Shown here: piece after piece, positions 9,200 to 63,190 of the stretch
Position numbering within the stretch: the stretch's first letter is position 1
Layout: the number at the start of each line of letters is the position of its first letter
NCBI GenBank assembly: GCA_964411675.1
Contig: CAYPLR010000002.1
Coordinates: forward strand, 25,536 to 89,535
Length of the DNA: 64,000 nt
Source of the DNA: an uncultured Bacteroidales bacterium
GTDB taxonomy: Bacteria; Bacillota_I; Bacilli_A; ML615J-28; CAG-698
Direction: 5' to 3'
Program-made: the position numbers and the translations under genes
The notes under the pieces: generated by a model
What the model saw: only the letters and a program-made list of their open reading frames with translations
Databases searched by the model: none
Told to the model about the DNA's origin: nothing

Positions 9200-9211
9200 A
9201 AGGTGGCTATC

Positions 9212-12840: not shown

Positions 12841-12855
12841 ATAGCAAGGAAAAAT

Positions 12856-14259: not shown

Positions 14260-14267
14260 GAGTTTAT

Positions 14268-15371: not shown

Positions 15372-15380
15372 GTGAAATTA

Positions 15381-15417
15381 AAAGCAGTATCCTAAGGGAT
15401 GAACACTGCTTTTTTAT
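15381..15417 (+). terminator. rho-independent terminator
   Basis: AGCAGTATCC-taag-GGATgaacACTGCT followed by T6. Confidence 0.65.
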
Positions 15418-15486
15418 TTATCAATTTGATTAGCGCTTTATTTTTTCAGAAAAATTTGATATAATAACACAAGGTGATTGGCTATT

Positions 15487-16930: not shown

Positions 16931-16934
16931 GAAT

Positions 16935-34149: not shown

Positions 34150-35622
34150 ATGAAAAAAATCTATACAATATGTTTCGTTTTATTAGGATTATTACTATTG
34201 TCAAGCTGTAAGCCAGAAAAAGAAGTAAGTAGCATTGAAGTAATTATGGATAAAGTCATGTATAATATCGAGGATTTTTCATTATCAGATATCAAGATAA
34301 AAGTAAATTATGGTGATAATTCAAATGAGACCATTCCTCTAGATAAAAGCATGATTTCAAGTGAAGACCAAACTCGCCTTAAAACACCTGGGTATTACTA
34401 TATTTGGGTTAATTACAAGGGAAAAGCAGCAGAAATGGAGATTTACTTAGCAATCGTTCATACAGTCAGTTTTGGAGAAATTTCTCAAGTAGAAGTAGTT
34501 GATGGAACCTATGTATGGAAGCCAATAGATCCGCAACAAGAAGGGAAAATTTTTGAAGGATGGTACTTAGATAGTGCTTTAACAATCATGTATAATTTTG
34601 ACACAGCGGTTACTTCCGATTTGAAACTTTATCCTAAGTGGTATGAGCAATCAATGGATACTTCCGATTTTATCATTGAATATACTTATTATGGATATAG
34701 TGTTGTGAGTTATTTAGGAAACGATCAAACAATTATAATCCCTACTACTTATAATGATGGGATAAATGGTTCTGGTCCAGTAGTTAGAATTGCTGATGAT
34801 TTATTTAGAGAAAATAGTGACCTTATTAGTGTTACCTTACCGAATAGTATTCAATATATTGGTGAATTTGCATTTGGCTATTGTGACTCATTACAAACAA
34901 TAAATTTTCCGAATGGACTTTTGGAAATTGATGATTATGCGTTTTATTCGTGTACAAGTCTACAAAACATAACATTACCTAATACAATAACAAAAATTAA
35001 TAAAGGAACCTTTGCAGATTGCGATACATTAACAACAGTGATCATTCCTCAAGGAGTTGAAAGAATAGAAAATAGTGCTTTTAATGATTGTGATAGTTTA
35101 GTAACAATTAGTTTTCCTCAAAGCTTAATCGCGCTAGGAGAAGAAGTATTTATGCATTGTCCCAATATTAAAACAATTTCACTTCCTAATAGTGTTACAG
35201 CTGTTGGCCAAGGAGCATTCAACGAATGTGATGGTTTAACTAGTATTACTCTTTCAAATAATTTACAAGCAATTGATGCATGGACTTTTGCTTATTGTTC
35301 AAGTTTGACTAGTATCAATCTTCCAACTGGAATTACTGAAATAGGAAGTTATGCTTTTACAGAAGCAACGGGTATTACGAGCATTACACTTCCAGCAACG
35401 GTAACCAAAATAGATTTTGGAGCTTTTGAATACTGCACGGCTTTAAAAACTTTATTTATTCCTAGTAGTGTTATAACAATTACTGATTCTATAGCTGAAG
35501 GATGTAATGAATTAACAATATACTGTCAAACTGGTTCAAAACCATTAGGATGGAGTGAAAAGTTTAATCGTTTAGATTCGTGGGGTGGAGTAGTTACTGT
35601 TGTATGGGGGTATAATAATTAG
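34150..35622 (+). CDS. surface lipoprotein with Listeria-Bacteroides repeat and BspA-type leucine-rich repeats
   Basis: Lipobox LLSSC. The repeat EGKIFEGWYLDSALTIMYNFDTAVTSDLKLYPKW, then ~9 tandem about 23-aa LRRs of the form IPxxVxxIxxxAFxxCxxLxxI. Confidence 0.75.
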   Translation: MKKIYTICFVLLGLLLLSSCKPEKEVSSIEVIMDKVMYNIEDFSLSDIKIKVNYGDNSNETIPLDKSMISSEDQTRLKTPGYYYIWVNYKGKAAEMEIYLAIVHTVSFGEISQVEVVDGTYVWKPIDPQQEGKIFEGWYLDSALTIMYNFDTAVTSDLKLYPKWYEQSMDTSDFIIEYTYYGYSVVSYLGNDQTIIIPTTYNDGINGSGPVVRIADDLFRENSDLISVTLPNSIQYIGEFAFGYCDSLQTINFPNGLLEIDDYAFYSCTSLQNITLPNTITKINKGTFADCDTLTTVIIPQGVERIENSAFNDCDSLVTISFPQSLIALGEEVFMHCPNIKTISLPNSVTAVGQGAFNECDGLTSITLSNNLQAIDAWTFAYCSSLTSINLPTGITEIGSYAFTEATGITSITLPATVTKIDFGAFEYCTALKTLFIPSSVITITDSIAEGCNELTIYCQTGSKPLGWSEKFNRLDSWGGVVTVVWGYNN

Positions 35623-35852: not shown

Positions 35853-38800
35853 ATGAATCTTAAAAAAACAATTCTGGTTATTGATAAAGATTATCAAGAA
35901 TCTATTTTTTTAAACGATTTTTTAGCTAGTGAATTTGATGTTTTAACAATCAATGATGAATGTATCATAAATAATATAATCAATACCCAAAAAGAAAATT
36001 TGTTAATCATTTTAATTAGTGATACATTTATGAATGAAAATATTACAAGCAAAGGTGTTATTGATAGAATTAAGGCTCTAAAAATTCCTTTATTGGGAAT
36101 TGTGAGTCAAAAAGGGAATGGCGAAGAAAAAAAATTCTTAGACTTAGGAATTATTGATCTTTTATATAAACCCTTCACTTATGGCGATGTTTTTGGGGAA
36201 ATAGTAAATATCGTTAAAAAAGACAAAACTCAAAAACAATTACAACTTATTATGGATAATATTACTGGAGGAGTTTTGCTTATTGATGTGGGAGAAACCC
36301 TTCGATGTTTATATGTAAACCAAGGCTTTTTTAGTTTTAGTGGGTATAGTGAAGAAAAATATCATCAAAACATGCAAATAGATATTGCAAGATATATTTT
36401 TTCTGAGGATGAACCTTTTGTAAGAAACCAATTAACACAAGCTGTAAAGGATAATAAACCTTTTTCTTTTGATTTTCGTACAACAATTAAAGAAAATGAA
36501 ATTAGATGGTTTTATGCACAAGGAACACCAATAAAAGATAATGAAACTACAGATTCGATGGTATTGGTTTTATTAACTGATATAACAAAATTAAAGAATG
36601 CCGAAGAAGAACTTTCACGAACTTCCTCTCAGTTGTCAATGATTATCAAAAATTTAAACTGTGGAATTGCCATTTTTTTATTAGATGAAGATATTGAACT
36701 ACTTTATGGGAATGGAACTTTATCAAAATTAATGGGATTTAAAAATGATGAAATTCGCAATTTATCAAGCGAATCCTTATCAAAATGTGTTTATGAAAAA
36801 GATTTTGAGAAATTTAAAAAGTATTTAAAAGAAGCTAGCCAAGAAAAAACAGATTCAAAAATAGATATAAGATTTATAAAAGGAAATGCAACCATTAACT
36901 GGGTTCGATTTAACGCGGAAAGAATCAGTGAAAATAGCAATAAATCATTAGTATACGGTATATTCTTAGAAATTAATAAGGAAAAAGCTCAGGAAGAGCA
37001 TACACAAAAAACAACAGAAGAACTAACATATCGTGCCAACTATGATTTATTGACAGGCGTTTTTAATAAAACAGCATTTTGTAATGCTACCTATACGATG
37101 CTTAAAATTTATCCTCAGAAGAAATTCATTCTTACTATGTGGAACATCGAGCAATTTAAAATTATTAATGATTTATTGGGAATCAAAACAGGAGATAGAA
37201 TTTTACAAATAATCGCTAATCGTTTTGCAAACATATTATCTGGTCAAGGTACTTATGCTCGAGCTGAAGCAGATCACTTTGTAACGTGCTTTCCAAAAGA
37301 TCAATTCGATGTTGAAGAAATCTTAAATGATATCGTTAATAGTATTGGACAATTGAAAATACAAAATCAAATTAGAATTGTTGCAGGAATCTATGAAGTA
37401 GATGATATTAATATTCCTGTTGAACAAATGTGTGATCGTGCAGCATTAGCTATGCAGACAATTAAAGGAAAATTCTTAAAGAACTTTGCTTATTATGATG
37501 ATCATTTGCGACTGAGCCTAGTTGTAGAGCGAGAGATTGTTAACGAAATGATACAAGCAATTGAGAATCGAGAATTTACAATTTACTTACAACCAATTTA
37601 TAGTCTTGCAAAGAATGAAGTAATCGGTGCAGAAGCATTAGCTAGATGGATTCACCCTCAAAAAGGAGTCATCAGCCCAAGTGTATTTATTCCTGTTTTT
37701 GAAAGAAATGGGTTTATTGCAAAATTGGATTACTATATTTGGGAAGAAACATGCCGTTATATTCGTAAACGAATGGATGAAAATAAGAAACTGATTCCTA
37801 TTTCTGTCAACGTATCACGATTAAGTTTATATAATCCTTTTTTGTGCGAAGAAATTGTTGAATTGATTGATAACTATGGAATAAATCATAATTTATTACG
37901 CTTTGAAATTACAGAAACAGCGTATAACGATAATCCAAAACAATTATTATCAACAATCAGTAAAATGAAAAAAGAAAAACTAAAAATTATGATTGATGAT
38001 TTTGGTAGTGGATATTCATCATTGAACGCATTGAAAGAAATACCAGTAGACATTATCAAAATGGATATGAAGTTTCTAGAAGGAGTAAAAGAATCGAATC
38101 GTGCTGATAGTATCTTAACTTCTGTTATTAGAATGGCAAAATGGATAGACAATCCAGTGATTGCTGAAGGAGTAGAGACAGAGACACAACTACATTTCTT
38201 GAAGAGTATTGGTTGTGATCGAATTCAGGGATATTATATTTCTCCGCCATTACCAGTAGAACAATTCGATAAATATCTTGAATCGAATCCTAAAGTATAT
38301 ATCGGAGAAGCACCCCTTCAATTGGTTGTCGATCAACTTGATTTAGGTGCACTATTCAGTGGGAATCCACTCTTGACTTATTTTTTAGATAACATCGCAA
38401 GTGGTGTAGGAGTTTATGAATTTTATAAAGGGAATTTAATTGGACTTAGAGTTAATAATGCTTACTATAAAATCATGGGTTACACGAAAGAGACCTTCTT
38501 GCAAGATGCAAAAAGCATTTTACAACAAGTTTATGAAGAAGATAGAAAAAAACTTATCGATGCTTGTAAATTAGTAATTAGTAATAAGAAACCAGAAAAA
38601 TTATTATTTAGAAGATATCGTGCCGATAAAGTAATTATCTGGTTGGATTCAAATATTAATTATTTAGGTGGATCAAAGAAAAAGCCTTTGATATCGATTA
38701 CTATTAGTGATGTTACTATTAGTGTTCAAGATAGAAAACTATTGAGTTATCAAGAAGAAACCATTATGCGATCATATCGTTTCCTAGCAAAATTATATGA

Positions 38801-40427
38801 TACGATTCCTTGTGGTATTATTCAGTTTACGTTAGCAACAAATCCAAAAGCAGTTGCTGCCAATCAGTCAGCATGTAAGATGCTTGGATATGCCAATGAA
38901 AAAGATTTTGTTGAGACTGTGGGGAAAGATCTTTCTAACCTTCTTGTAAAAGGAACAAATAAGTTTGTCAATAAACAAACATACAAGGAATTAAAAGAGG
39001 GAAAACAACTCAATTACGAAGTCGAGTTTAAAAAGAAAAACGGTAGTTCAGGTTGGTATCGTATCACGATCTATCAATTAACCAATGTTGAAGGAATAGA
39101 GGTAATTCAAGGAGTATTTATTGACTTTAGCGAAGATAAAACTAAATTGATTACCACGAAAGAAAACATCTCAATTTTAAATCGTTCTCTTGATTTTTTA
39201 AGAGTTGGGGTTGTTTGCTGGGAACAAGATAGCAAAATCAAGATTGCTTTAATCAATAAAAAAATGAGCGAAATGTTGGGTTATTCTCATCAAGAATATT
39301 GTAAATTATTCTCATCGGGTAAAATTGATAATAATACTAAAATAGAAGATCTTAAGTTTAATTATGAGGAATTGAAGAAACTCCAAAGCAACGAAGAAAA
39401 AGTTGTTGAATTAACTAGAAAAGATAATAGTAAAATTATTGCTAAGATTAATTTATCTATCGATACTAGCGAAGGACAAGATTCTTATCAAGCAACAGTA
39501 ATAGATATTACCAAAGAATATCAAGAAAACAAGGAAATAAACAGTAAAATTGATTTATATGAGAATTTATTGTGTATTCCTAAAAGCTATATATTCGATT
39601 ATAATATCAACAGCAAAGTTTTAAAATACTATAGGCCAGATAAAGAAGAAAATAAAGACACGAATATTGTTGAAAACTTCAACACAAAAATTGTGAAATA
39701 TAAAAATATACACGAAGATTATATTAAAGAATTCACAAAAATCTTCTTAAAAAAATACGAACAAGAAACGAAAGACAGTTTAGAATTTCTCGCCAAATTC
39801 AATAGTCCTGATTTCAATTGGTATCGTATTACTTATAAAGTTATTAAGGATGAAGAAAAAAAAGGTTTTCGTGTCATCGGTAGTGTTTGCAATGTTCATT
39901 CCGAAGTAGAAAAAGTAATCAGGATGAAAGAGCGTTCCCAAAGAGACATTATGAGTGGGCTTTACAATCGGGCAGTTACTGAAGAATTGATAAAAAGTAA
40001 ACTTTGTGAAATGAAAAGAAATGAAACATTTACTTTTTATATGATAGATATCGATCAATTTAAAGAAATTAATGATGAATATGGTCATTTAATTGGGGAT
40101 AGATTAATTTTAAAAATATCAAACATGTTAAAGCAAAAATTCGATTCTAAAGCAATCATAGGTAGACTGGGTGGGGATGAATTTGCGGTTTTATCTATGA
40201 CAGAAAACAGTGAAGAAAAAGCAATTCTTAAAGCAGAAGATATTCTTCAAGCGACAAGAGATTTGAGTAAAACAATGAATGTTAAGCTAAAAATTACAAC
40301 AAGTGTAGGGATAGCGATGGCTCCTCGCGATGGAAAAGCATTTAAGACACTATTTATGAATGCTGATAAAGCAATGTATAAAGCTAAAAACGAAGGAAAA
40401 GATTGTTGTAAGGTTTATCAAGACTAA
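35853..40427 (+). CDS. multidomain c-di-GMP turnover/sensor protein: REC-like - PAS - degenerate GGDEF - EAL - PAS repeats - GGDEF
   Basis: 1524 aa. N-terminal CheY-like fold (VIDKDY...LLIILISD...LYKPF). First GGDEF degenerate (RAEADHF in place of RxGGDEF; DID replaced by WNIE). EAL domain with all catalytic signatures (EALARW, QPIY, VNVS, FEITET, DDFGSGYSS, KMDMKF, AEGVET, QGYY). C-terminal GGDEF intact (RLGGDEFAVL). Extended -10 TGtGGGATAAT and RBS AAGAGGAAAA upstream. Confidence 0.85.
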   Translation: MNLKKTILVIDKDYQESIFLNDFLASEFDVLTINDECIINNIINTQKENLLIILISDTFMNENITSKGVIDRIKALKIPLLGIVSQKGNGEEKKFLDLGIIDLLYKPFTYGDVFGEIVNIVKKDKTQKQLQLIMDNITGGVLLIDVGETLRCLYVNQGFFSFSGYSEEKYHQNMQIDIARYIFSEDEPFVRNQLTQAVKDNKPFSFDFRTTIKENEIRWFYAQGTPIKDNETTDSMVLVLLTDITKLKNAEEELSRTSSQLSMIIKNLNCGIAIFLLDEDIELLYGNGTLSKLMGFKNDEIRNLSSESLSKCVYEKDFEKFKKYLKEASQEKTDSKIDIRFIKGNATINWVRFNAERISENSNKSLVYGIFLEINKEKAQEEHTQKTTEELTYRANYDLLTGVFNKTAFCNATYTMLKIYPQKKFILTMWNIEQFKIINDLLGIKTGDRILQIIANRFANILSGQGTYARAEADHFVTCFPKDQFDVEEILNDIVNSIGQLKIQNQIRIVAGIYEVDDINIPVEQMCDRAALAMQTIKGKFLKNFAYYDDHLRLSLVVEREIVNEMIQAIENREFTIYLQPIYSLAKNEVIGAEALARWIHPQKGVISPSVFIPVFERNGFIAKLDYYIWEETCRYIRKRMDENKKLIPISVNVSRLSLYNPFLCEEIVELIDNYGINHNLLRFEITETAYNDNPKQLLSTISKMKKEKLKIMIDDFGSGYSSLNALKEIPVDIIKMDMKFLEGVKESNRADSILTSVIRMAKWIDNPVIAEGVETETQLHFLKSIGCDRIQGYYISPPLPVEQFDKYLESNPKVYIGEAPLQLVVDQLDLGALFSGNPLLTYFLDNIASGVGVYEFYKGNLIGLRVNNAYYKIMGYTKETFLQDAKSILQQVYEEDRKKLIDACKLVISNKKPEKLLFRRYRADKVIIWLDSNINYLGGSKKKPLISITISDVTISVQDRKLLSYQEETIMRSYRFLAKLYDTIPCGIIQFTLATNPKAVAANQSACKMLGYANEKDFVETVGKDLSNLLVKGTNKFVNKQTYKELKEGKQLNYEVEFKKKNGSSGWYRITIYQLTNVEGIEVIQGVFIDFSEDKTKLITTKENISILNRSLDFLRVGVVCWEQDSKIKIALINKKMSEMLGYSHQEYCKLFSSGKIDNNTKIEDLKFNYEELKKLQSNEEKVVELTRKDNSKIIAKINLSIDTSEGQDSYQATVIDITKEYQENKEINSKIDLYENLLCIPKSYIFDYNINSKVLKYYRPDKEENKDTNIVENFNTKIVKYKNIHEDYIKEFTKIFLKKYEQETKDSLEFLAKFNSPDFNWYRITYKVIKDEEKKGFRVIGSVCNVHSEVEKVIRMKERSQRDIMSGLYNRAVTEELIKSKLCEMKRNETFTFYMIDIDQFKEINDEYGHLIGDRLILKISNMLKQKFDSKAIIGRLGGDEFAVLSMTENSEEKAILKAEDILQATRDLSKTMNVKLKITTSVGIAMAPRDGKAFKTLFMNADKAMYKAKNEGKDCCKVYQD

Positions 40428-44687: not shown

Positions 44688-45485
44688 TTATAGGATAAAT
44701 TTGAAAACAGTTAAGATATCAGTATAATTTGATGATTGACAAATGACACTGTCACTTCCTAAAAGTTTACAACCAGGAAAGAAAGAATTACGATAAGCAT
44801 CAGTATGGCGTTTATATTGTATTTCTATCTCAAATTTTTTTGGTAAAGATACTATATTCTGTGCCAAATCTTTAGTTAAAGCTTGAAAAACGCCTTCTTC
44901 AATTTCTTTACAAGTAATATGTGGATGTTTAGAAATGACAGCATTGAAACGTCCCTCTTTACTAGCTACGGTTTCAATATTAGGATTTATCTCTTTCACA
45001 AGATTTGTTAGGTTAGCATCTCCACTTAAAAAAGCAACGGGTACATTTAATAACGATGCATAATAAGAATTAATAGTAAATTCACTTGCAATTACGTTGT
45101 TTATCTTAACGTAATGAATGTTTGTATTCATGGTGTGGGACAAAGGATTTCCATTTGAGCGTGATGGGCTGTGATAGCCAATAAAAACAACAGCATCAAA
45201 AGAAGAATCTAATCCTGCCATCATACTGCATAGACTGCCTTCCCAACCACGATGAAGCTTAACCATTTCTGGTAAATCAAGAATGTTTAGATTTCTTGCA
45301 CTATCGTGAGCATCTTTAATAACAATTTCTGTTGCTCCTGCACGGATTGCACCCAGACAAGCAGCGTTTACTTCCCTTTGTAATTCTTCTTGAAACTCCT
45401 TATAACGAGGAGAAGAGACTTCTGTTTCTTCCCAATGGCAAATGCCATTGATACCTTCAATATCAATACTTAAAAATACTTTCAT
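44688..45485 (-). CDS. M55-family D-aminopeptidase (DppA-like)
   Basis: MKVFLSIDIEGINGI N-terminus and metal-ligand H/E pattern typical of DppA. AGGAGG sits 9 nt before the ATG. Confidence 0.65.
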   Translation of the reverse strand: MKVFLSIDIEGINGICHWEETEVSSPRYKEFQEELQREVNAACLGAIRAGATEIVIKDAHDSARNLNILDLPEMVKLHRGWEGSLCSMMAGLDSSFDAVVFIGYHSPSRSNGNPLSHTMNTNIHYVKINNVIASEFTINSYYASLLNVPVAFLSGDANLTNLVKEINPNIETVASKEGRFNAVISKHPHITCKEIEEGVFQALTKDLAQNIVSLPKKFEIEIQYKRHTDAYRNSFFPGCKLLGSDSVICQSSNYTDILTVFKFIL

Positions 45486-52671: not shown

Positions 52672-52700
52672 TTGCCAAAATCGAACATTAATGGTATAAT
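52672..52700 (+). promoter_or_regulatory. sigma-A promoter of the SRP RNA gene
   Basis: TTGCCA, a 17-nt spacer, then TATAAT. Confidence 0.65.
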
Positions 52701-52881: not shown

Positions 52882-53859
52882 ATGTTTAAAATTGGAAATG
52901 TAGAAGTGAAAAATTCTATTGTGCTTGCTCCATTAGCTGGATATACAAATCAAGCCTATCGAAAAATAATCAAAGAATTCGGTGTGGGACTTGTTTATAC
53001 AGAAATGATTAGTGCAAAAGGACTCATTTACGATAATGATAAAACTTGGTATTTAACGGAAATAGCAGATAATGAACATCCGATAGCTGTGCAACTATTT
53101 GGTGGAAACGCTGAAGATTTAGTCAAAGCAGCGATTATGATTGATCAAAAAACAAAGGCTGATATTATTGATATTAATATGGGATGCCCAGTAAAGAAGG
53201 TTATCAAAGCTGAATCTGGTGTAAAAATGATGCTGGATATCAAGAAAGCCTACAACATTGTTAGTCAGGTAGTGCAAGCCGTAAAAAAGCCAGTTAGTAT
53301 AAAAATGCGAGCAGGTTGGGATCATCAAAATATCAACTGTTCTGAATTTGCAAAAGCGATGGAACAAGCGGGAGTGGCATTAATTACCATTCATGGTAGA
53401 ACTAAAAGCGATTTGTATGGAGGGCATGTTAACCTAGACTATATAAAAAAGGTAAAAGAAAGTGTTAAAATCCCTGTTATTGGTAATGGTGACATCAAAT
53501 CCGTGAAAGATGCAGTAAAAATGTTAGAGTATACAAATGCCGATGGAATCATGGTTGGTAGGGGAACCTTTGGTAACCCATGGTTAATAAGAGATTTAGT
53601 AGATTATTTCTCTGGTAAAACAACCGATGCACCACCAACAAAAAAAGAAAAAGTCACTATGATTAGACGACATTTTCAAGAATTATTGCAAATAAAAGCG
53701 GAAAAAATCGCAGTATTAGAAATGCGCACATTAGCAGCATGGTATGTGAAGGGATTTCATTACGCAAAAGAATTCAAACAAAAATTAATCAGTATCAAAA
53801 CAAAAGAAGAAATGAATTTACTAATAAATGAACTGGAAAAGAGTATAGACGAGGAATAA
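52882..53859 (+). CDS. dusB: tRNA-dihydrouridine synthase
   Basis: FMN/TIM-barrel motifs LAPLAGYTN, DINMGCPVKKV and catalytic Cys. RBS GGAGAAA. Confidence 0.85.
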   Translation: MFKIGNVEVKNSIVLAPLAGYTNQAYRKIIKEFGVGLVYTEMISAKGLIYDNDKTWYLTEIADNEHPIAVQLFGGNAEDLVKAAIMIDQKTKADIIDINMGCPVKKVIKAESGVKMMLDIKKAYNIVSQVVQAVKKPVSIKMRAGWDHQNINCSEFAKAMEQAGVALITIHGRTKSDLYGGHVNLDYIKKVKESVKIPVIGNGDIKSVKDAVKMLEYTNADGIMVGRGTFGNPWLIRDLVDYFSGKTTDAPPTKKEKVTMIRRHFQELLQIKAEKIAVLEMRTLAAWYVKGFHYAKEFKQKLISIKTKEEMNLLINELEKSIDEE

Positions 53860-53862
53860 TAA

Positions 53863-56070
53863 ATGATAACAAAATCGATGCATGTTCAAGACAATGTTTT
53901 ATATATGGGAGAATATAGTTTAGTAGATCTTGCAAAAAAGTATGGAACTCCCCTATATGTATATGATGAAGTAGGAATAAACAATAAAATAGAAAAATTT
54001 AAAAACAATTTTAAAAGCAATCAATTCGAATGTGAAGTAGTATATGCTTCTAAAGCATTTATCGCACCATATTTATGCAAGATTCTTGCTCAAAATAATT
54101 TTAGTATTGATTCTGTGAGCGAAGGAGATTTATATTTAATTAATAAAAGTGGCTTCCCAATGAATAAAGTAGTTGCTCATGGTAATAATAAACTAATGAG
54201 TGAATTGATGCTAGCTTTAGATTATGGAGTAGAATATTTAGTTGTTGATAATCTTACTGAATTATTAAAATTAGAATATTTAGCTAATCGAAAGCAAAAA
54301 CCCTTAAAGACATTAATTAGAGTTAATCCAGGGATTGAAGCTCATACACATGCTTACATTGAGACTGCAAATTTAAGCTCTAAGTTTGGTGAGTCAATTT
54401 TTGCTACCGATATTTTAGAACAAATGATAGCTGTTTATCGCAATTCAAAATATTTAACTTTAGAAGGATTCCATGCGCATATAGGTTCACAAATTAATAA
54501 TCCCAATAGTTTTCTTTCAGAAGTAAAAACGATGTGTCAATTCATGCGTAACTTTTCAGAAAAAACAGGATTTTCTTTTCGAGCATTAGATATTGGTGGT
54601 GGCTTTGCTATTAAATATTTGGATGATGATGTTGAAATAGATTTACCTACCATGTTACAGTTAATTGTGAAAGCAGTAGAAGAAGAAAATGCAAAATCAG
54701 AAACAATGAAAATTGAAAAATTGATGATAGAACCAGGAAGATCACTAGTAGGTGATTCTGGAGTTACGCTTTATACATGCGGAAGTAAAAAGACAACCTA
54801 TAATGGTAAAAATTATATCTTTGTTGATGGTGGAATGTCAGATAATATTCGTCCCGCTTTATATCAGGCAAAATACTCAGTTGATGTAGTGAATCATGTC
54901 GTTTCACCAACAAAAGAAAAATATGATGTGGTTGGAAAATGCTGCGAAAGCGGGGATATCATTGTCACTGATACAATGATTGGTGAAATTCATAAAGGCG
55001 ACATTATGGTAGTGTATTCTACTGGTGCTTATTGCTATTCAATGTCAATGAACTATAACAGCTTAGCAAGAGGTGCAGTTATTTTTGTAAATGGGGATAA
55101 AATTACAACAGCAATAAGGAGACAAAGTTTTGAACACATGTTTGAAACCTGTGTTTTTGAGGAGAAAGATATGAAGATATTTGATATTCACAGCGATATG
55201 TTATATGATTTGAATAAACAAAGCTTATTAGGAAACCATACAAGATTTAAAGATTACCATGTTCCTCAATTGCAAAATAGTTGCATTAAAGGAGCAGTTT
55301 GGACGATGTATTCACCTGATGATTTCAATTTATTGGAAGCGGTGAAGCGAGCAATCAACAAAATTGATTTACAGGAGTTACCAGGGTTTGAAGTTATCTT
55401 GGGGCTTGAAGGGCTACGAAACCTAGAAAAAGTGGAAGATATCAACCAATTATACGAACTAGGCTTTAGACATGCGATGCTAACATGGAATGAAGAAAAC
55501 AAATATGCGACGGGTGTTGGAGGCAATGCAAATAGAGGATTAACTGAAGAAGGCATACGTCTAGTAAAACGCATGGAAGAACTAGGTATGATTATTGACT
55601 TGGCGCATTTAAATGAAAAAAGTTTTTATGATGTCTTAAAAGTTGTAAACAAGAATATTGTTTATTCTCATGGATGTGTAAAAGACATTTGTAATCATCG
55701 TCGTAATGTCACAAATGAGCAAATGCTTGCTTTAAAAGCAGTTGATGGTTTGTTAGGATTAACACTAGCAAAAAACTTTGTGAGTCCAATAGAAGAAGAA
55801 AAAGATTTGGCCCACTTCTTAAATCATCTAGATAAAGCGATAGATGTAATGGGAATCGATCATGTTTGCTTTGGCTTTGATTTCATGGATTATTTGTCAG
55901 AATTTCCTAATGATAATATCATTGATGTACCAAATGCAACAAAAGCATTTCGCATTATTGATGGAATGAGAGAAAGAGGTTACACGGAAGAAGAAATAGA
56001 AAAGATTTGTTGGAGCAATTTTTACAATCGATATAAAAACAAGGTTGTCTTAAGAGGAGAAAAGAAATGA
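53863..56070 (+). CDS. lysA: diaminopimelate decarboxylase (LysA, aa 1-436) fused in frame to an M19 membrane-dipeptidase-family domain (aa 437-735)
   Basis: N-terminal part has LysA motifs (YASKAF PLP-Lys, GGGF, EPGRSLVGDSG, CCESGD). C-terminal part starts MKIFDIHSDMLYDL with M19 His/Asp/Glu metal ligands. An intact SD GAGGAG sits 6 nt before the internal ATG 55171. The junction is on T5 (55154-55158). Confidence 0.7.
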   Translation: MITKSMHVQDNVLYMGEYSLVDLAKKYGTPLYVYDEVGINNKIEKFKNNFKSNQFECEVVYASKAFIAPYLCKILAQNNFSIDSVSEGDLYLINKSGFPMNKVVAHGNNKLMSELMLALDYGVEYLVVDNLTELLKLEYLANRKQKPLKTLIRVNPGIEAHTHAYIETANLSSKFGESIFATDILEQMIAVYRNSKYLTLEGFHAHIGSQINNPNSFLSEVKTMCQFMRNFSEKTGFSFRALDIGGGFAIKYLDDDVEIDLPTMLQLIVKAVEEENAKSETMKIEKLMIEPGRSLVGDSGVTLYTCGSKKTTYNGKNYIFVDGGMSDNIRPALYQAKYSVDVVNHVVSPTKEKYDVVGKCCESGDIIVTDTMIGEIHKGDIMVVYSTGAYCYSMSMNYNSLARGAVIFVNGDKITTAIRRQSFEHMFETCVFEEKDMKIFDIHSDMLYDLNKQSLLGNHTRFKDYHVPQLQNSCIKGAVWTMYSPDDFNLLEAVKRAINKIDLQELPGFEVILGLEGLRNLEKVEDINQLYELGFRHAMLTWNEENKYATGVGGNANRGLTEEGIRLVKRMEELGMIIDLAHLNEKSFYDVLKVVNKNIVYSHGCVKDICNHRRNVTNEQMLALKAVDGLLGLTLAKNFVSPIEEEKDLAHFLNHLDKAIDVMGIDHVCFGFDFMDYLSEFPNDNIIDVPNATKAFRIIDGMRERGYTEEEIEKICWSNFYNRYKNKVVLRGEKK

Positions 56071-57155
56071 TAAAGGGTAAAGTCGAAGGATTAGATAATC
56101 TAATTAAAAAAGCACTGGAAGATGAAACATTTCCAGGAGCAAACTATTGTTTAATTACTGATAAAGATGAAATCTATGGATGCTTTGGAAAGAAAGCAAT
56201 TTATCCAGAAGTAGAAGAAAATGATATTGATACCTTATATGATATGGCTTCCTGTAGTAAGGTAATCAGCACAACAACTTCGATTATGATGTTATTAGAG
56301 CAAGGTAAATTAAGACTTTATGATTCGGTTAAAAAATATATCCCTCGTTTTCGCTATGATAAGATAACCATATGGGATTTGCTAACTCATTCATCGGGAT
56401 TACCTTCTGATATTATTCGAGCATCTCGATTACAAAGTCGTGAAGAAGCATTGGATAAAATCTTTGATTCGCTATTAATCTACGAAAAAAATACAAAAAT
56501 TGTCTATTCGGATTTAGGATTTATTTTGTTGGGGTTGGTTGTTGAAGAAATCAGTGGAATGAAACTTGATGAGTTTGCTCAAAAAAATGTATTTATCCCA
56601 TTAGAAATGACATCAACAGGCTATAATCCTAAAGATGAAAAAAGATGTGCACCAACAGAAGAACGAAAAGATGATGTATACCATGGGGTTTTACGAGGAA
56701 AAGTCCATGATGAAAAAGCGTATATCCTTGGAGGAGTAGCAGGACATGCTGGACTGTTCTCTTGTGTTAAAGATTTGAGTCATTTTATTAAAATGATTTT
56801 AAATGATGGCGTTTATAAAGGAAAACAAATCTTAAGTAAAGCAACGATTGATTTATTATTTACACCACAAGTAGCCATGAAAAACAGTATCTCTTTAGAT
56901 GACGATACGAGAGGATTGGGATGGATTGTTAGAGGAACTGTATGTTCTGCAGGTGATTTAGCAAGTCCACAAACCATATTACATACAGGCTTTACAGGAA
57001 CTAATATTTTTATTGATCGTATTAACAGGGTTGGTTTTTCTATGCTATCTAATCGTGTTCATCCAACACGGGAGAATGTGAAAATCATACCATTTAGAGG
57101 TATGTTAGGCAATTATATCATAGCTAATTTTGGAGGAAGAAATAATGGAAATTAA
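56067..57155 (+). CDS. beta-lactamase/transpeptidase-fold serine hydrolase (S12-like)
   Basis: SxxK motif MASCSKV, YSDLGF, and HTGFTG. No signal peptide. Start overlaps the upstream stop (ATGA). Confidence 0.7.
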   Translation: MIKGKVEGLDNLIKKALEDETFPGANYCLITDKDEIYGCFGKKAIYPEVEENDIDTLYDMASCSKVISTTTSIMMLLEQGKLRLYDSVKKYIPRFRYDKITIWDLLTHSSGLPSDIIRASRLQSREEALDKIFDSLLIYEKNTKIVYSDLGFILLGLVVEEISGMKLDEFAQKNVFIPLEMTSTGYNPKDEKRCAPTEERKDDVYHGVLRGKVHDEKAYILGGVAGHAGLFSCVKDLSHFIKMILNDGVYKGKQILSKATIDLLFTPQVAMKNSISLDDDTRGLGWIVRGTVCSAGDLASPQTILHTGFTGTNIFIDRINRVGFSMLSNRVHPTRENVKIIPFRGMLGNYIIANFGGRNNGN

Positions 57156-58128
57156 AAGTTTTAATAAGGAAATGGTTAGTGATGTAGTAAAACTATGGAA
57201 TGAGAGTGTTGTACCCTATTCTATATTTGCAGAGTTTACCGATGAAAGCTTCACAGAAAAATTTTTAAACAATCCTTTTTATGATAATGATGGTAGTTGT
57301 GTTGTCTTTGAAAAGGGTAAAATTATTGCTTTTGGTAATGCTACTTATAACAACAATGGCCTAGAACCAGAAAAAACACCAGGATATATTACTTGTATCG
57401 CTGTCGATAAAGATTATTGGCGTCAAGGAATTGGTAGTAAAGTGTTACTTTATCTTGAAACATTCTTAAAAAGCAAGGGGAAAACATTTATTCGTACTTT
57501 TTTCGCAAATCCAATCAACTTAAAATGGTATGTTCCTGGTTATCATAAACACGAACATGCTGGAGCTCCTGCGGTTGAAATCAATAGTCCATTTTACTTT
57601 TTGCTAATGGCCAATGGATATAATACTAATGGCCAACAAGATGCTTATCATGTTGATCTAACAAAATTTAAAATGCCACAAAAGGTATTAGACAAAATCG
57701 CTGAAAATGAAAAAGATGGATATACAATTACTATTTATGATGAGAAAAAGCATCACGGCTTTAATGAGTTGTTTGATGCTTTAGGCAGTGAAGGTTGGAG
57801 ACAAGCAATCAATAATAATCTTGCGAAAGAAAAGCCATTACCAATTTTAATAGTTCAAAAAGATGGAGAAATTCTTGGCTTTACTGGCCCAATTAACAAC
57901 GAACCAAGCGGTAGAGCATATTTAGCGGGTGTAGCAATTCATCCTAAAGCTCAGGCTCGTGGTTTAGGAAAAACGATGTTTTGTTCGTTGTGCCAAGTAT
58001 CCAAAGAAAATGGCTCTACCTTCATGACATTATTTACAGGTTCAGATAACAAAGCGAGAAATATATATCTATATGCAGGATTAAGAGTAATTCGTTCATT
58101 TGCAATTATGAGAAAGGAACTTGTTTAA
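57145..58128 (+). CDS. GNAT-family N-acetyltransferase (tandem GNAT-like domains)
   Basis: Acetyl-CoA motif RQGIGSKVL in the first half and RGLGKTMF in the second half. GGAGGAAG sits 5 nt before ATG 57145. Confidence 0.7.
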   Translation: MEIKSFNKEMVSDVVKLWNESVVPYSIFAEFTDESFTEKFLNNPFYDNDGSCVVFEKGKIIAFGNATYNNNGLEPEKTPGYITCIAVDKDYWRQGIGSKVLLYLETFLKSKGKTFIRTFFANPINLKWYVPGYHKHEHAGAPAVEINSPFYFLLMANGYNTNGQQDAYHVDLTKFKMPQKVLDKIAENEKDGYTITIYDEKKHHGFNELFDALGSEGWRQAINNNLAKEKPLPILIVQKDGEILGFTGPINNEPSGRAYLAGVAIHPKAQARGLGKTMFCSLCQVSKENGSTFMTLFTGSDNKARNIYLYAGLRVIRSFAIMRKELV

Positions 58129-58129
58129 A

Positions 58130-58819
58130 ATGGCAAAAACATTTATGGCAATTGGAGGACATGTTGGTGATATGGAACTAACAGCGGGGTGCGTATTAGC
58201 CCATCAAGCTGTTCACCAAGATAAAATTATCACAGTTGCTCTAACTGCTGGGGAAAGAGGAAACCCCAAAAACATGAGTCAAGCAGATTACCGTGTGCAA
58301 AAAGTAAAAGAAGCACAGGAGTTTGCAGAAATGTTAAATGGTGAAGCAATCGTTCTTGATTATCCGGATGGTGAACTTCCTGATAACGAAGAAGTGAGAT
58401 GGCAAGTAGCCGCTTTAATTAGAAAATATCGACCTAATGTCATATTTACTCATTGGGAAAAAAGCATGCACAAAGACCATGCTACAACAAATAAAATAGT
58501 TGTAGATGCTTCTTTTTGGGCAGGTATCGATGTAGGAAATAAATTAGAAGGAACTCCTTGTTGGGCACCTGTTTATTTTTGTGAAAACTGGGAAGATAGA
58601 GAAGATTTTGATCCTTACATGATTGTTGATTGTAGCGATGGCTATGACTTATGGTGTAAGGCGATTCAAAAACATTGGTTTATTATGAATAGCCCTTCGT
58701 TTAGATATTATGATTATTATACACACTTGACTTATGTGCGAGGAGCATTAGGAAAATATCAACATGCACAGTGCTTCAATGTCAAAGGATATCAAAAATT
58801 TACCAAGGTTACTTTTTAA
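58130..58819 (+). CDS. LmbE/PIG-L-family N-acetylglucosaminyl deacetylase
   Basis: N-terminal AIGGHVGDME (AHxDDE-like) and HxDH block MHKDHATT. Confidence 0.55.
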   Translation: MAKTFMAIGGHVGDMELTAGCVLAHQAVHQDKIITVALTAGERGNPKNMSQADYRVQKVKEAQEFAEMLNGEAIVLDYPDGELPDNEEVRWQVAALIRKYRPNVIFTHWEKSMHKDHATTNKIVVDASFWAGIDVGNKLEGTPCWAPVYFCENWEDREDFDPYMIVDCSDGYDLWCKAIQKHWFIMNSPSFRYYDYYTHLTYVRGALGKYQHAQCFNVKGYQKFTKVTF

Positions 58820-58821
58820 CT

Positions 58822-59760
58822 ATGAAGAATAAACCAAACAAGTTGAAAACGAATGATACCATAGGTTTGGTTTGCCCGGCCTTTAAAAACCCAGATTCCT
58901 CCTCAACAGAAAGAGCAATTGAATATCTTACAAGCAAAGGTTATCGTGTAAAAGTCGGAGAAACTTGCTATGCTAGTGAAGGATACCTAGCGGGAAGTGA
59001 TCAATTACGGGCACAAGATTTGGAAAAAATGTTTCTCGATGATGAAGTGAAAGCAATTATTTGCATGCGCGGTGGTTATGGGGCAAGTCGAATGGTAGAC
59101 TTGATTGATTATGAAAAAATAAAAAACCATCCTAAAACATTTATTGGATATAGTGATATTACTGTATTGCTAAATGCAATTTACCATAAAGCAAAAGTGC
59201 CAACAGTTCATGGAATGGTAGGGTTTGCTTTTGGAACAGAGAAGTTTGCTGGTGAAAGCGAAAACGACTTTTGGAAATTTATACTGGAAAATCAAGAGAA
59301 ACGGGTCTTAAAAGACCCATTAGATCAAACAAAAACCCTAGTAGGAGGGACATGTTGTGGTGAACTTGTTGGTGGTAATTTAAGCTTATTAGCAACAATG
59401 ATCGCTAGCGATTATGGAGCCGATTTCTCAAATAAGATTCTTTTTATTGAAGAAGTCGAAGAGGAACCCTATAAGCTAGATCGATATTTTTCAACTTTAC
59501 GTCTTTCTGGTAAACTTGAAAAAGTAAAAGGATTTGTCTTTGGCTACTTTACAGAGTGTGAACCTTCAGAAAAAAGAAAAGGGACACAGACGTATGTTGA
59601 TCTAATTAAAGAGTATTTTGCTCATTATCAAAAACCTATTATTTATGACTTCCCATCAGGACATTCTTATCCATTCATTAACCTTCCAATTGGTGTTAAA
59701 GTAAAACTAGATGCTGATGAAAGAAGTATAACCATTATGGAAGAATTCTATAAAGAATAA
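58822..59760 (+). CDS. ldcA: LD-carboxypeptidase (S66, muramoyltetrapeptide carboxypeptidase LdcA-like)
   Basis: Catalytic Ser motif FIGYSDITVL, Glu and His (PSGHSYPF) triad context. About 313 aa. Confidence 0.75.
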   Translation: MKNKPNKLKTNDTIGLVCPAFKNPDSSSTERAIEYLTSKGYRVKVGETCYASEGYLAGSDQLRAQDLEKMFLDDEVKAIICMRGGYGASRMVDLIDYEKIKNHPKTFIGYSDITVLLNAIYHKAKVPTVHGMVGFAFGTEKFAGESENDFWKFILENQEKRVLKDPLDQTKTLVGGTCCGELVGGNLSLLATMIASDYGADFSNKILFIEEVEEEPYKLDRYFSTLRLSGKLEKVKGFVFGYFTECEPSEKRKGTQTYVDLIKEYFAHYQKPIIYDFPSGHSYPFINLPIGVKVKLDADERSITIMEEFYKE

Positions 59761-59773: not shown

Positions 59774-61078
59774 ATGCAAAAAGCACTTAAGAGATTTACA
59801 CTTCCAGGATATGTCACTTATTATGGAACAACCAAAAAGGTTATGATACCTACAGAATATGAAGAAAAAGATGAGGAATTACGAGGAGTATGGTTTTCCA
59901 CTGTTGCTAATATTGACATTCCTCAAATGACTAATCCAGATGAAATTAAGCAATATTTATTGGGAGTTATTCAAAAAGTAAAAGAGTTCAACATGAATAC
60001 TGTTGTCTTTCAAGTTAGACCTATGAATGATGCTTTTTATCCATCAAAACTTAATCCATGGAGTCGTTATATCACAGGAACTGAAGGAAAAGATCCCGGG
60101 TTTGATGTGTTTGGATATTTTGTTGAAGAGGCGAAAAAAGCGGGTATTACAACACATGCTTGGATAAATCCATATCGTGTTACTGGTCAAGAACTGAATA
60201 AAATAAGCAAGACAAAAGAAGAATTCTTAGAAACACTAGATAAGAAAAATTTTGCTCGTAAACATCCTGAATGTGTTATTAAGACATCATTATCAAAACT
60301 AATTCTTGATCCTGCAAACGCTAAAGTTAGAAAGTTTGTTACGGATACGGTATTAGAAATTGCTCAAAACTATGATATAAAAGCTGTCCATATCGATGAT
60401 TATTTTTATCCATATGAACCAATTGCAGATGAAGACGAAGAAAGAAAATTCAAAGAAAGTAAGTTTGATAAACTATCTGATTTCAGAAGAAATAATGTTG
60501 ATAAACTAATTAAAATGATTTCACAAAAGCTAAGAAAACTGGATAAGAAGGTTGAGTTTGGTATTAGTCCTTTTGGTATCTATCGAACGAATTCTAAATT
60601 CTTTGAAAAAGAAGAAGCAGATGAAGCTTCGTGGGACAAAGGTTCTAATAATCATAAAGGTTGCTATAGCTGTTACAAAGGATTATATGCTGATGTATAT
60701 TTGTGGATGAAAAAGAAATGGATTGACTATGTAACACCTCAAAACTACTTTGATTTTAGTAATACTAAAATTGATGAAAAAGGTGAGGAAACTTGTCGAG
60801 TTCGTTATGCTGACTTAGCTAAATGGTGGAGTTGGGTTTCAAAAAAAACAGGGATAAAACTATATATGGGACAAGGATTTTATCGATATTCTGATGAAGG
60901 AGATTGGTCTAATCCAGAAGAAATTATCAATCAATTAAAATTCAATCAGACGTTTCCAAATGTAAAAGGAACTATGTTTTTCACATATAAAAATTTTGTT
61001 GAAGAAAAAGTCCAATCAGCAGTTAAAGCTCGAAAATTATTAAAAGAAATTTGGAAAAATCCAGTAAAAGAAATATAA
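59774..61078 (+). CDS. glycoside-hydrolase-like family 10 (GHL10/YngK-like TIM-barrel) protein, cytoplasmic
   Basis: RGVWFSTVANIDIPQ N-terminal block typical of GHL10. RBS AAAGGAGAAAG. No signal peptide. Confidence 0.55.
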   Translation: MQKALKRFTLPGYVTYYGTTKKVMIPTEYEEKDEELRGVWFSTVANIDIPQMTNPDEIKQYLLGVIQKVKEFNMNTVVFQVRPMNDAFYPSKLNPWSRYITGTEGKDPGFDVFGYFVEEAKKAGITTHAWINPYRVTGQELNKISKTKEEFLETLDKKNFARKHPECVIKTSLSKLILDPANAKVRKFVTDTVLEIAQNYDIKAVHIDDYFYPYEPIADEDEERKFKESKFDKLSDFRRNNVDKLIKMISQKLRKLDKKVEFGISPFGIYRTNSKFFEKEEADEASWDKGSNNHKGCYSCYKGLYADVYLWMKKKWIDYVTPQNYFDFSNTKIDEKGEETCRVRYADLAKWWSWVSKKTGIKLYMGQGFYRYSDEGDWSNPEEIINQLKFNQTFPNVKGTMFFTYKNFVEEKVQSAVKARKLLKEIWKNPVKEI

Positions 61079-61084
61079 AACGAG

Positions 61085-61112
61085 TAGCACTTTTTAGTGC
61101 TACTTTTTAATA
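61085..61112 (+). terminator. rho-independent terminator
   Basis: GTAGCACTttttAGTGCTAC followed by T5AAT. Confidence 0.75.
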
Positions 61113-61312: not shown

Positions 61313-63190
61313 ATGTATAAGATATACCCTAACGTCAAGAAAATTTCTTTGGGACAAGGAGAGTTTCTTGTAAAAGAAAAATTAACTGTTTTTTTTCAAG
61401 GTGAAAAAGAAAACGTTTTTACCATAACCAAAGAGTTTATTGATGATAAGAAAAAAGTTAATGAAGCAGAAGCTGATATCATTTTCATAAAAGATGAACA
61501 ATTAAGCGAAGAAGCTTACAAGTTAGAAGTCAAAGAAAAGATTTACATTACCTATCAAACAAGAAGGGGAGCACTTTTTGCTCTACAAACATTAAAACAA
61601 ATTGTTAAGCAAGGAAAAACAAAAATAGACTATTTGCAAATATTTGATGAGCCAGATATAAAAATAAGGGGATATATGTTGGATATCAGTCGCGATAAAG
61701 TCCCAAAAATTGCGACAATCAAATCGATCATTTCAAGAATGGCAGAACTAAAGATGAATCATTTTGAATTATATGTGGAAGGATTCTCTTTTGAATATCA
61801 GAGTTTTCACCAATTTTTAGAAGAAGATGGATACATAAGTGTCAAAGAATATCAAGAACTTGAAAATTATGCGAATGATTTAGGAATTGATATGGTACCA
61901 AATCAAAATGGATTTGGTCATATGGCAAAATGGTTAGCAACAGAGGAGTTTAAAGATTTAGCAGAGTGCCCAGAAGGAATTTTCTTATGGGGAAGAAATC
62001 GTGAACCAAGTACATTAAATCCATTGGATTTGCGTTCGCTTGAGCTAATTAGAAAAATGTATTTAGACATGCTACCCTATGCTAAGTCTTCTTATTTTAA
62101 CATGAATTTTGATGAACCTTTTGAATTAGGAAAAGGGAAAAGCAAAGAAGAATGTGAGAAAAAGGGAATTGGCAACGTCTATATTGATTATGTTCTGAAA
62201 GCTTATGAAATAATAAAACAATATCAAAAAACGCCATTAATTTGGGGTGATGTTTTAATTAAACATCCTGACTTATTAGGCCGTTTACCAAAAGATATGA
62301 TTTTTGTTGATTGGGGGTATGATGCAACCCACCCATTTGATAAAAATTTAGGTCTTTTAAAAAAACTTGGAATTTCTTTTATGGCAGCACCAGGTACAAC
62401 AAGCTGGTCGAGTTTTACAGCGCGCAATCGTGATTGGTCAGAAAACATTACTAATGCTTGTTTAGCAGTAAAAAAACATGGTGGAGAAGGTGTTCTCTTA
62501 ACTGATTGGGGAGATTTTGGCCATTTGCAATTCTTACCAATTTCTTATCCAGGGCTTGTTTATATGGGACTATATTCTTGGAGAATGAAAGAAGGAACAT
62601 ACTTAAGTTTAAAAGACTACTTAAACACTTATATTTTCGATGACAAAGCAGAAATTATGGGTGAATGTTTACTAGATCTAGGTAATTACTACCGTTTTGA
62701 AAATGACTATCGTGGCAATGGTGTACCAACATTTTATAATTTTATGTGGGCTAGCCTTGCTAATGGTGAAAAAGATAGTATTCAATATTATATCGACCGG
62801 GTTAAAACAACGTTTTTAAGTGAAAAGAAGTTTGCTTTGATGCAAAGATTTTTGGATTTCAAGGAATTTGAACTTGGATTAACTGAAATGAAATGTAGTG
62901 ATGCTGACTTAATTAAAGCAGAAATGAAGCAAGCGATTCGCTTTATTCGTATGGCACAGAAAGTTAACATCGGTTTAAACAAACAAATTGATATGAATCT
63001 TCGAAAAAAATACTTGGAAGAAATAGTATCTGAAAAGAATAATTTTATAAGTGAACAAAAAAGACTTTGGCATACTAGAAATAAATCGGGGGGATTCAAG
63101 GATAGTATATTCCTTGTAACGGAGTTTATCGACTTTGCTGAAAGCATGTTAGAATTTTTAAATAAAAGAGGTGAAGATTATGAAATCTAA
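61313..63190 (+). CDS. GH20-family beta-N-acetylhexosaminidase-like enzyme (cytoplasmic)
   Basis: GH20 motif IRGYMLDISRDKVP and catalytic D-E pair region NFDEPFE. RBS TAGGAGAAAG. No signal peptide. Confidence 0.7.
   Translation: MYKIYPNVKKISLGQGEFLVKEKLTVFFQGEKENVFTITKEFIDDKKKVNEAEADIIFIKDEQLSEEAYKLEVKEKIYITYQTRRGALFALQTLKQIVKQGKTKIDYLQIFDEPDIKIRGYMLDISRDKVPKIATIKSIISRMAELKMNHFELYVEGFSFEYQSFHQFLEEDGYISVKEYQELENYANDLGIDMVPNQNGFGHMAKWLATEEFKDLAECPEGIFLWGRNREPSTLNPLDLRSLELIRKMYLDMLPYAKSSYFNMNFDEPFELGKGKSKEECEKKGIGNVYIDYVLKAYEIIKQYQKTPLIWGDVLIKHPDLLGRLPKDMIFVDWGYDATHPFDKNLGLLKKLGISFMAAPGTTSWSSFTARNRDWSENITNACLAVKKHGGEGVLLTDWGDFGHLQFLPISYPGLVYMGLYSWRMKEGTYLSLKDYLNTYIFDDKAEIMGECLLDLGNYYRFENDYRGNGVPTFYNFMWASLANGEKDSIQYYIDRVKTTFLSEKKFALMQRFLDFKEFELGLTEMKCSDADLIKAEMKQAIRFIRMAQKVNIGLNKQIDMNLRKKYLEEIVSEKNNFISEQKRLWHTRNKSGGFKDSIFLVTEFIDFAESMLEFLNKRGEDYEI

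Follow-up and report, generated by a model that had tools for sequence, protein, structure and literature searches.

The window analysed here is a stretch of 64,000 nucleotides (nt) of contig CAYPLR010000002.1 (GenBank assembly GCA_964411675.1, positions 25,536 to 89,535), deposited as an uncultured Bacteroidales bacterium (GTDB lineage Bacteria; Bacillota_I; Bacilli_A; ML615J-28; CAG-698). On its forward strand it exhibits a single open reading frame (ORF) of 735 amino acids (aa), in which a diaminopimelate decarboxylase (LysA) continues without a stop codon into a dipeptidase of family M19. A sequence-only reading of the window, made without database searches, had described this ORF as a complete LysA joined to a complete M19 enzyme and had estimated its product at about 82 kDa; matches to TIGR01048 and PF01244 agree with that description. 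The N-terminal part scores 404.9 bits against the TIGR01048 lysA model (cut-off 297.9), aa 9-428 being aligned to model positions 5-414 of 417. Being above the equivalog cut-off, it is by this measure a bona fide LysA. In the alignment with the Mycobacterium tuberculosis LysA structure (1HKV), residues 15-427 of the query correspond to residues 26-442 of a chain whose length is listed as 453 (E-value 4e-74), and a Foldseek comparison of the LysA part with solved diaminopimelate decarboxylases gives target-normalised TM-scores of 0.86-0.89. The lysine that binds pyridoxal phosphate (PLP), K64, and the fold-type III decarboxylase motifs GGG, EPGR, CESGD and GAY are all retained. K64, H206, G245-247, E290-R293, R330 and Y334, and further C361, E362, D365, G388, A389 and Y390, are invariant in 81 of 81 fused proteins compared.

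The C-terminal part matches the Pfam family Peptidase_M19 (PF01244) with 203.8 bits (cut-off 26). Positions 2-288 of the family profile align to residues 4-308 of the Listeria structure 3NEH, and 3LU2 is matched too. Residues H443 and D445 (the HxD motif), E516, H582, H603, R614 and D673 are invariant in the same 81 proteins; the positions of the binuclear zinc ligands, of the catalytic aspartate and of the arginine that contacts the substrate carboxylate are all present. The ligand positions align with IGIEGL, DLSH, YSHS, HARN and GSDF of GliJ and with RVIDTHCD of 3NEH, and human DPEP1 is consistent with this assignment. The histidine of the LTH motif, His152 in human DPEP1, is absent from the M19 half, where Trp542 (LTWNEEN) is invariant in the fused proteins. 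A tryptophan also takes the place of this histidine in M19-only relatives (L042-L048 in our numbering of loci) and in Listeria 3NEH (LTWNNAN). The substitution is, judged from this distribution, a trait of the short Firmicute-type M19 subfamily and not of the fusion. An AlphaFold2 model of the whole protein exhibits two confident domains with a mean pLDDT of 91.3. From the conserved active sites, the models and the structure matches we predict that both enzyme halves look active. Foldseek matches in the PDB are all LysA-sized, and no solved structure there spans both domains.

The two domains meet at a very short junction. In the DNA at 55147-55188, the lysA codons ACC TGT GTT TTT lead into GAG GAG AAA GAT, followed by the internal ATG and by AAG ATA TTT GAT ATT CAC; the translation across the junction reads ...ETCVFEEKDMKIFDIHSD... 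The first six bases of the linker form a Shine-Dalgarno-like GAGGAG (55159-55164), which is separated from the internal ATG by a 6-nt spacer (AAAGAT). The ORF, the run of five T residues (T5), the GAGGAG, the spacer and the ATG at 55171 all lie where the sequence-only reading had put them, to the base. Its statement that a sixth T would end the LysA frame is also correct, as a T6 at the run starting at 55154 gives TGT GTT TTT TGA. A T4 would end the LysA frame as well, at the TGA of the aTGA that overlaps the internal ATG. The T5 run itself is unremarkable: runs of five or more A or T residues number 20 in the fusion ORF and 673 in the window (GC content 31.6%). Programmed frameshifting at this run was considered and rejected, the zero frame (GTT TTT GAG) exhibiting no X XXY YYZ heptamer. 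It is also disfavoured by the position of the Shine-Dalgarno (SD) sequence, downstream and not upstream of the run, and by the lack of conservation of the run.

A protein search over 5.8 billion proteins, clustered at 90% identity, identified more than 100 clusters that share the LysA-M19 fusion (725-739 aa, three Pfam domains, 53-92% identity, 99-100% coverage). These homologues derive from metagenome-assembled genomes of Bacilli or Acholeplasmataceae and from many metagenomes. They form one cluster at 50% identity, represented by P0003, and public records label them only as "diaminopimelate decarboxylase". Among the best 150 of 1.84 billion representatives we found no second, independent LysA+M19 architecture. 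The LysA-M19 fusion is thus, as far as these searches reach, confined to one clade. An alignment of 106 full-length fused proteins shows a variable linker of few residues and, in place of the internal methionine, often I, V, T, Q or K. NCBI and Logan both have an entry for a protein identical to the 735-aa product, alongside many other 735-aa members of its cluster. We compared the DNA of 48 genome loci and 49 metagenome loci; by junction class, the fetched loci comprise 45 with fused genes, 25 with split genes and 20 with an M19 gene only. Within its Acholeplasmatales-like Bacilli clade, the fusion is the common state. In the close relatives L001 and L049 (92% identity) the T5 run is kept and the genes are fused, and ATG is replaced by ATA (tgtgtttttgaggaaaaagagATA). 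In L003 and L050 (91%) and in L002 (83%) the run is interrupted (TTTAT), the genes are again fused and the ATG is present (tgtgtttAtgaggag...ATG). The junction of L023 is identical to that of the window, with T5 and fused genes. No T-run length variants were seen among the close relatives, which all exhibit T5 or TTTAT and are always in frame.

Split relatives indicate where the fusion came from. In the 25 split loci, lysA and the dipeptidase gene are separate, with ATGA or TAATG overlaps or with a stop codon followed by AGGAGG and ATG. An ATGA overlap is found in L068 (gaggtggaagaATGa; also written tgtaattttgaggtggaagaATGa). Other split junctions are those of L025 (gaggtggaaTAATG), of L026, L028 and L076 (tttTAGgaggaataATG; also written catttttTAGgaggaataATG), of L031 to L033 (aaaggagataaaTAATG) and of L008 (ttTAAaaggagaattttATG). 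The distance from a conserved phenylalanine codon (TTT) to the ATG is 11 nt in the split junctions versus 12 nt in the window. Because the split junctions are exactly one base shorter, the fusion corresponds to a 1-nt merge of frames. The earlier suggestion that a single base lies between the fusion and two coupled genes therefore holds as evolutionary history. On this evidence, adjacent, translationally coupled genes for LysA and for a short cytosolic M19 zinc dipeptidase were merged by a 1-nt change in length at their overlapping stop and start, and the old ribosome-binding site and start codon turned into the linker Glu-Glu-Lys-Asp-Met.

Fitch parsimony on neighbour-joining trees of 64 unique LysA+M19 concatenates placed the split state at the root and required 3-4 changes between the fused and split states in every one of 100 bootstraps. 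By this reconstruction, the loci show the fused state fixed across much of the Acholeplasmatales-like clade, and gained or reverted 3-4 times with the active sites kept. The trees were built by neighbour joining without a species tree, so the shares of fusion and fission in these changes are uncertain. Some split loci, namely L029 (4080-4121), L073, L074 and L075, have a dipeptidase that starts a few codons upstream (MESINKKDNIK..., MEIK..., MKDIK... and MEEIK...) and keeps former linker residues. They appear to stem from secondary fission of a fused ancestor, with a new upstream start.

As a coding for Glu-Glu, GAGGAG is uncommon in this genome. GAG makes up 18% of the glutamate codons in the neighbouring genes, 6 of the 56 in the fusion ORF and 3-32% across the compared fused ORFs, and GAGGAG encodes only 3 of 57 Glu-Glu pairs in the neighbouring genes. 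GGAG is kept, as GAG GAG or AAG GAG GAA, in all 11 listed fused junctions of the KEE/EEK lineages that exhibit ATG or GTG. This retention holds across deep branches despite protein identities of 56-82%, and the synonymous sites beside the kept SD vary (ACC/ACA/ACG/ACT, TTT/TTC, CAC/CAT). Lineages without a start exhibit AAA GAA GAA (L004, L099, L100) or GAG GAA (L001, L049). The joint chance of AAG-GAG in five deep KEE lineages is about 1e-7, if the lineages are independent. This pattern suggests that the SD and the start are selected together, and therefore that a free dipeptidase would be made by internal initiation. We rate it an even question whether the locus yields, besides the full-length LysA-M19 protein, a free dipeptidase initiated at Met437. 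A promoter scan gave no support for a promoter just upstream of Met437.

The fused gene lies within a long run of genes on the same strand (Table 1). The order dusB-lysA-M19-PBP4B-like-(GNAT)-(PIG-L)-(LdcA)-GHL10-(GH20) is kept in 34 of 34 genome loci, fused or split, and in each of these 34 loci with lysA and M19 the PBP4B-like gene follows the M19 gene. A GAGGAA lies inside the end of dusB (window 53842-53865), which stops 3 nt before the lysA ATG; the fusion gene is likely to be translationally coupled to dusB. The best promoter-like site, upstream of dusB, is a possible promoter of the operon. The evidence for it is weak, as site counts do not exceed those of shuffled sequences (50 sites found in the scan, 53.8 expected). 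The hairpin after the GHL10 gene is followed by a promoter-like site before the GH20 gene. The continuation of the operon beyond the window was read from locus L108, whose genes at 8538-11657, 11672-12664 and 12666-13661 take window coordinates after a shift by 54642. On L108 (8538-16436), the ABC permease genes are followed by genes for a 581-aa protein without a Pfam hit, a Yip1 protein and a DUF5696 protein. The PBP4B-like, GHL10 and GH20 proteins show no apparent signal peptide at their N-termini. The PIG-L protein weakly resembles BshB1. NF008424, which matches the LD-carboxypeptidase below its cut-off, is the muramoyltetrapeptide carboxypeptidase model. As a side observation, the operon downstream of the fusion looks like an undescribed locus for the utilisation of muropeptides or amino-sugar glycopeptides. 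A gene for an M55 D-aminopeptidase (DppA-like), an enzyme acting on peptides of D-amino acids, lies 9 kb upstream of the operon (44688-45485, reverse strand).

Table 1. Features of the fused gene and of its operon (window coordinates).
Feature	Position	Strand	Remark
Best promoter-like site, TTGCCA-17-TATAAT with extended -10 TG	52672..52700	+	upstream of dusB
dusB (tRNA dihydrouridine synthase)	52882..53859	+	3-nt gap before the fusion; syntenic in most related loci
Fused lysA::M19 ORF	53863..56070	+	735 aa; single ORF; about 82 kDa as estimated earlier
LysA (diaminopimelate decarboxylase) domain, aa 1-432	53863..55158	+	TIGR01048; 1HKV alignment
T5 run within the LysA frame (codons GTT TTT)	55154..55158	+	not special
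Linker EEKD, four residues	55159..55170	+	matches the SD and lysA end of split relatives
Internal in-frame ATG (Met437)	55171..55173	+	dipeptidase start codon in split loci; candidate internal initiation site
M19 (renal-dipeptidase family) domain, short cytosolic Lmo2462 type, aa 437-735	55171..56070	+	PF01244
MLTWNEE of the LTWNEEN motif, aa 539-545	55477-55497		
PBP4B/AmpH-like beta-lactamase-fold serine hydrolase	56067..57155	+	ATG overlaps the TGA of the fusion (ATGA)
Double-GNAT acetyltransferase	57145..58128	+	called gene; synteny
PIG-L family de-N-acetylase	58130..58819	+	family match; synteny
LD-carboxypeptidase (peptidase S66, LdcA-like)	58822..59760	+	NF008424, 151 bits, below the cut-off of 378
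GHL10 glycosyl-hydrolase-like protein	59774..61078	+	family match; synteny
Terminator-like hairpin after the GHL10 gene	61082..61105	+	
GH20 beta-N-acetylhexosaminidase-like protein	61313..63190	+	family match; synteny
Solute-binding protein gene, 5' part of 1039 aa	63180..64000	+	followed by two ABC permease genes on the same contig

LD-carboxypeptidase and PBP4B-like enzymes have stem peptides of peptidoglycan as their substrates. Characterised members of family M19 accept dipeptides with a C-terminal D-residue (L-Xaa-D-Xaa), a type to which L-Ala-D-Glu and mDAP-D-Ala (mDAP, meso-diaminopimelate) belong. Meso-diaminopimelate (meso-DAP) is not known to have sources other than the DAP pathway and peptidoglycan. 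On this basis we propose that an importer of the sugar ABC type would bring in peptidoglycan fragments, which the conserved cytoplasmic operon would degrade. The dipeptidase domain would hydrolyse an L-Xaa-D-Xaa dipeptide derived from the stem peptide (L-Ala-D-Glu or mDAP-D-Ala), and the LysA domain would convert the liberated meso-DAP to L-lysine. That the operon serves such a salvage of imported peptidoglycan fragments, feeding meso-DAP to LysA, has in our judgement roughly even prospects. The explanation as a whole, namely a genuine bifunctional gene derived from merged neighbours, appears highly probable.

The sequence-only reading had left the choice between a genuine fusion, a 1-nt homopolymer miscall and a phase-variable tract, and had proposed to compare T-run lengths among orthologous loci, taking orthologues with the same in-frame junction as proof of a real fusion. 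Such a junction is present in more than 100 clusters and in the 45 fetched fused loci, and the relatives are fused with either TTTAT or T5. A sequencing or assembly error, with a true T6 or T4 and two separate coupled genes, would fit the fact that one base more or less in the run ends the LysA frame at a TGA near an SD and an ATG, and near-identical junctions with separate coupled genes do exist in other lineages. Yet the frame is kept in L002, L003 and L050, where TTTAT interrupts the run, and in the independent T5 assemblies L001, L049 and L023. The record of an identical protein in both NCBI and Logan and the existence of diverged fused homologues argue in the same direction, and T5 is a short homopolymer in a window with so many A/T runs. 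We reject an error as very improbable. Phase variation, in which the homopolymer would switch between the fused protein and two proteins, is less probable still: five bases are short for slipped-strand switching, close relatives exhibit no length polymorphism, and the tract is not conserved in the fused clade, even though both frame states are viable in nature. The genuine fusion being retained, the main rival to internal initiation is that the SD and ATG are simply remnants that have not yet decayed since a fairly recent fusion and that the 735-aa protein is the sole product, to which we give a probability somewhat short of even. The clade of the window (window, L001, L002, L003, L023) is only 82-92% identical, which leaves little time elapsed; the tree places it beside split lineages; and L001 and L049 have already lost the ATG and one base of the SD. 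Several observations weigh against selection for internal initiation. The SD and start can uncouple, as L103 has an ATG with a weak SD, and L098, which has lost the start (ACG) and is nearly identical to L102, keeps the SD. The start has been lost independently only about three times, and the other large clade of fused proteins (L005-L030 among its members) functions without SD and internal methionine. Because this clade lacks both, function does not in general depend on the free dipeptidase. On the other side, the sister KEE clade keeps the rare-codon SD over 66-82% identity where the start is present, and exhibits AAA GAA GAA otherwise.

A further alternative concerns the function of the fusion. 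LysA could simply catalyse the final reaction of lysine synthesis de novo, and M19 could work with PIG-L and GNAT on another substrate (e.g. in thiol-conjugate or amino-sugar metabolism) or replace an N-acyl-DAP deacylase, so that the fusion would have no relation to peptidoglycan salvage. We hold this to be unlikely, although by no means negligible. LysA reaches the equivalog cut-off of a biosynthetic enzyme, the PIG-L protein is weakly BshB1-like, and an M19-PIG-L-double-GNAT triad without lysA or LdcA is found in Haploplasma modicum and other Acholeplasmataceae. In H. modicum ATCC 29102 (L036, 6055-9371) the M19 gene is followed directly by genes for PIG-L, double GNAT and a HAD phosphatase, and synteny points to the trio of M19, PIG-L and GNAT genes in L034 and L037 as well. 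These three genes may constitute a separate module. On the other hand, the LD-carboxypeptidase, PBP4B/AmpH-like hydrolase, GH20 and importer genes are syntenic with lysA and M19 in the 34 genome loci, the recurrence of the fusion speaks for a functional connection of LysA with M19, and no dap genes are present within the 64-kb window. The same is true of mur genes; a span of this size is too small to call the pathway absent. With regard to the salvage reading itself, the following caveats apply. Haploplasma modicum and its relatives have the M19 gene with PIG-L and double GNAT and lack the PBP4B-like gene besides lysA and LdcA, and LysA may accordingly not be the primary partner of the dipeptidase. 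The operon revealed neither an enzyme for the gamma-D-Glu-mDAP bond nor a MurQ, and all NCBIfam matches of the operon neighbours lie below the equivalog cut-offs. With the LTH histidine changed to tryptophan, the substrate handling of the M19 half may differ from that of characterised M19 enzymes. As to the fused protein as such, the AlphaFold2 model (pTM 0.63) gives no confident interface between the domains or relative orientation. The salvage reading leads to a wider picture, which we offer tentatively and regard as doubtful. In it, thin-walled or wall-less Acholeplasmatales-like bacteria would feed on the peptidoglycan of their neighbours by a dedicated cytoplasmic pathway, the last steps of which would be coupled in one polypeptide; the fusion would have been selected repeatedly, and some lineages, that of the window among them, would keep the ribosome-binding site for dual products. 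If so, the dipeptidase would release meso-DAP or clear L-Ala-D-Glu and LysA would make lysine on the same polypeptide, and selection for the coupling of LysA and M19 would be strong enough for several independent fusions.

The LysA half has the same fold as the solved LysA enzymes (TIGR01048; 1HKV, 5X7M, 1TWI), with the PLP lysine and the GGG, EPGR, CESGD and GAY motifs. In contrast to these, it lacks a stop codon and is joined by a linker of four residues to a second enzyme. LysA is also fused to another enzyme in the aspartate kinase/diaminopimelate decarboxylase (NF006515), and our query matches the C-terminal half of that model (score 170.7, cut-off 802). However, the N-terminal partner in that family catalyses the first step of the same pathway, whereas here the partner is a peptidase and is C-terminal. 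In two other long proteins, P0250 (757 aa) and P0207 (636 aa), the match is restricted to the LysA part (residues 16-430 and 226-627, respectively), a hint of further, different LysA fusion architectures elsewhere. The M19 half belongs to the same TIM-barrel binuclear-zinc family as Lmo2462 (3LU2, 3NEH), Sco3058 (3ID7), DPEP1 (1ITQ) and GliJ (5LWZ). By profile it matches best the short cytosolic type from Listeria, which also has the tryptophan in place of the LTH histidine. It differs from the M19 dipeptidases in its fusion to LysA and in exhibiting LTWNEEN instead of LTH.

Known sets of genes for peptidoglycan recycling include LdcA, MpaA, YcjG and PepD and the gene order murQ-murP-yfeW(PBP4B) in Escherichia coli, and murQRP-amiE-nagZ-namZ and ykfABCD in Bacillus subtilis. 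Like these sets, the operon described here has an LD-carboxypeptidase, a PBP4B-like hydrolase, a hexosaminidase and an importer. It differs in its glycosidase families (GH20 and GHL10, where the known sets have GH3 and NamZ), in that all its enzymes appear cytoplasmic, and in that no MurQ, MpaA/YkfC or epimerase was seen in it. In B. subtilis, NagZ, AmiE and NamZ degrade peptidoglycan sequentially (PMC8054146). The described recycling pathways are without LysA or an M19 dipeptidase. With respect to the candidate internal start, the closest parallels are the genes that give two products from in-frame internal starts, such as those of IF2 (alpha/beta), CheA (long/short) and ClpB (long/short). 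The present gene resembles them in having an SD and an ATG in frame inside the ORF, at a domain boundary. It differs in that the candidate site was inherited as the start codon of what used to be a gene of its own. A literature search found no description of the fusion, of its operon or of a role of M19 enzymes in peptidoglycan or lysine salvage. The term "unusual", which the sequence-only reading had applied to the fusion, is thus apt in so far as no publication on it was found, and inapt within its clade, where it is common. What is already known comprises the proteins as database entries, LysA fusions as such, and the fusion of overlapping operon neighbours as a familiar process.

With the suspected assembly error removed, the gene should be annotated as encoding a bifunctional protein, neither split nor flagged as a frameshift. 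The recurrent LysA-M19 fusion constitutes a Rosetta-stone link. It yields the first functional hypothesis open to test for the short, uncharacterised M19 dipeptidases of the LTWN type (that of 3LU2 and 3NEH). The hypothesis extends to the conserved operon, which may let Bacilli with reduced genomes gain lysine and amino sugars from the walls of others. The loci also form a natural series with every stage represented, namely separate genes, ATGA or TAATG overlaps, fused genes with a live-looking ribosome-binding site and fused genes with a decayed one. Such a series is useful for the study of how operon neighbours become multidomain enzymes.

Two further features of the window deserve mention. 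A 1524-aa protein encoded at 35853-40427 (+) exhibits several PAS domains, EAL and two GGDEF stretches and is a large signalling protein for cyclic di-GMP, its host being a small, AT-rich Acholeplasmatales-like genome; a gene for a BspA-type leucine-rich-repeat protein adjoins it upstream (34150-35622). At 12856-18971 (+), an MBOAT acyltransferase gene is accompanied by a gene for a DHHW partner and by one for a 678-aa protein of the sulfatase family (LtaS-like). This set suggests that envelope polymers are made and modified, a point of relevance to the question whether the organism truly lacks a wall.

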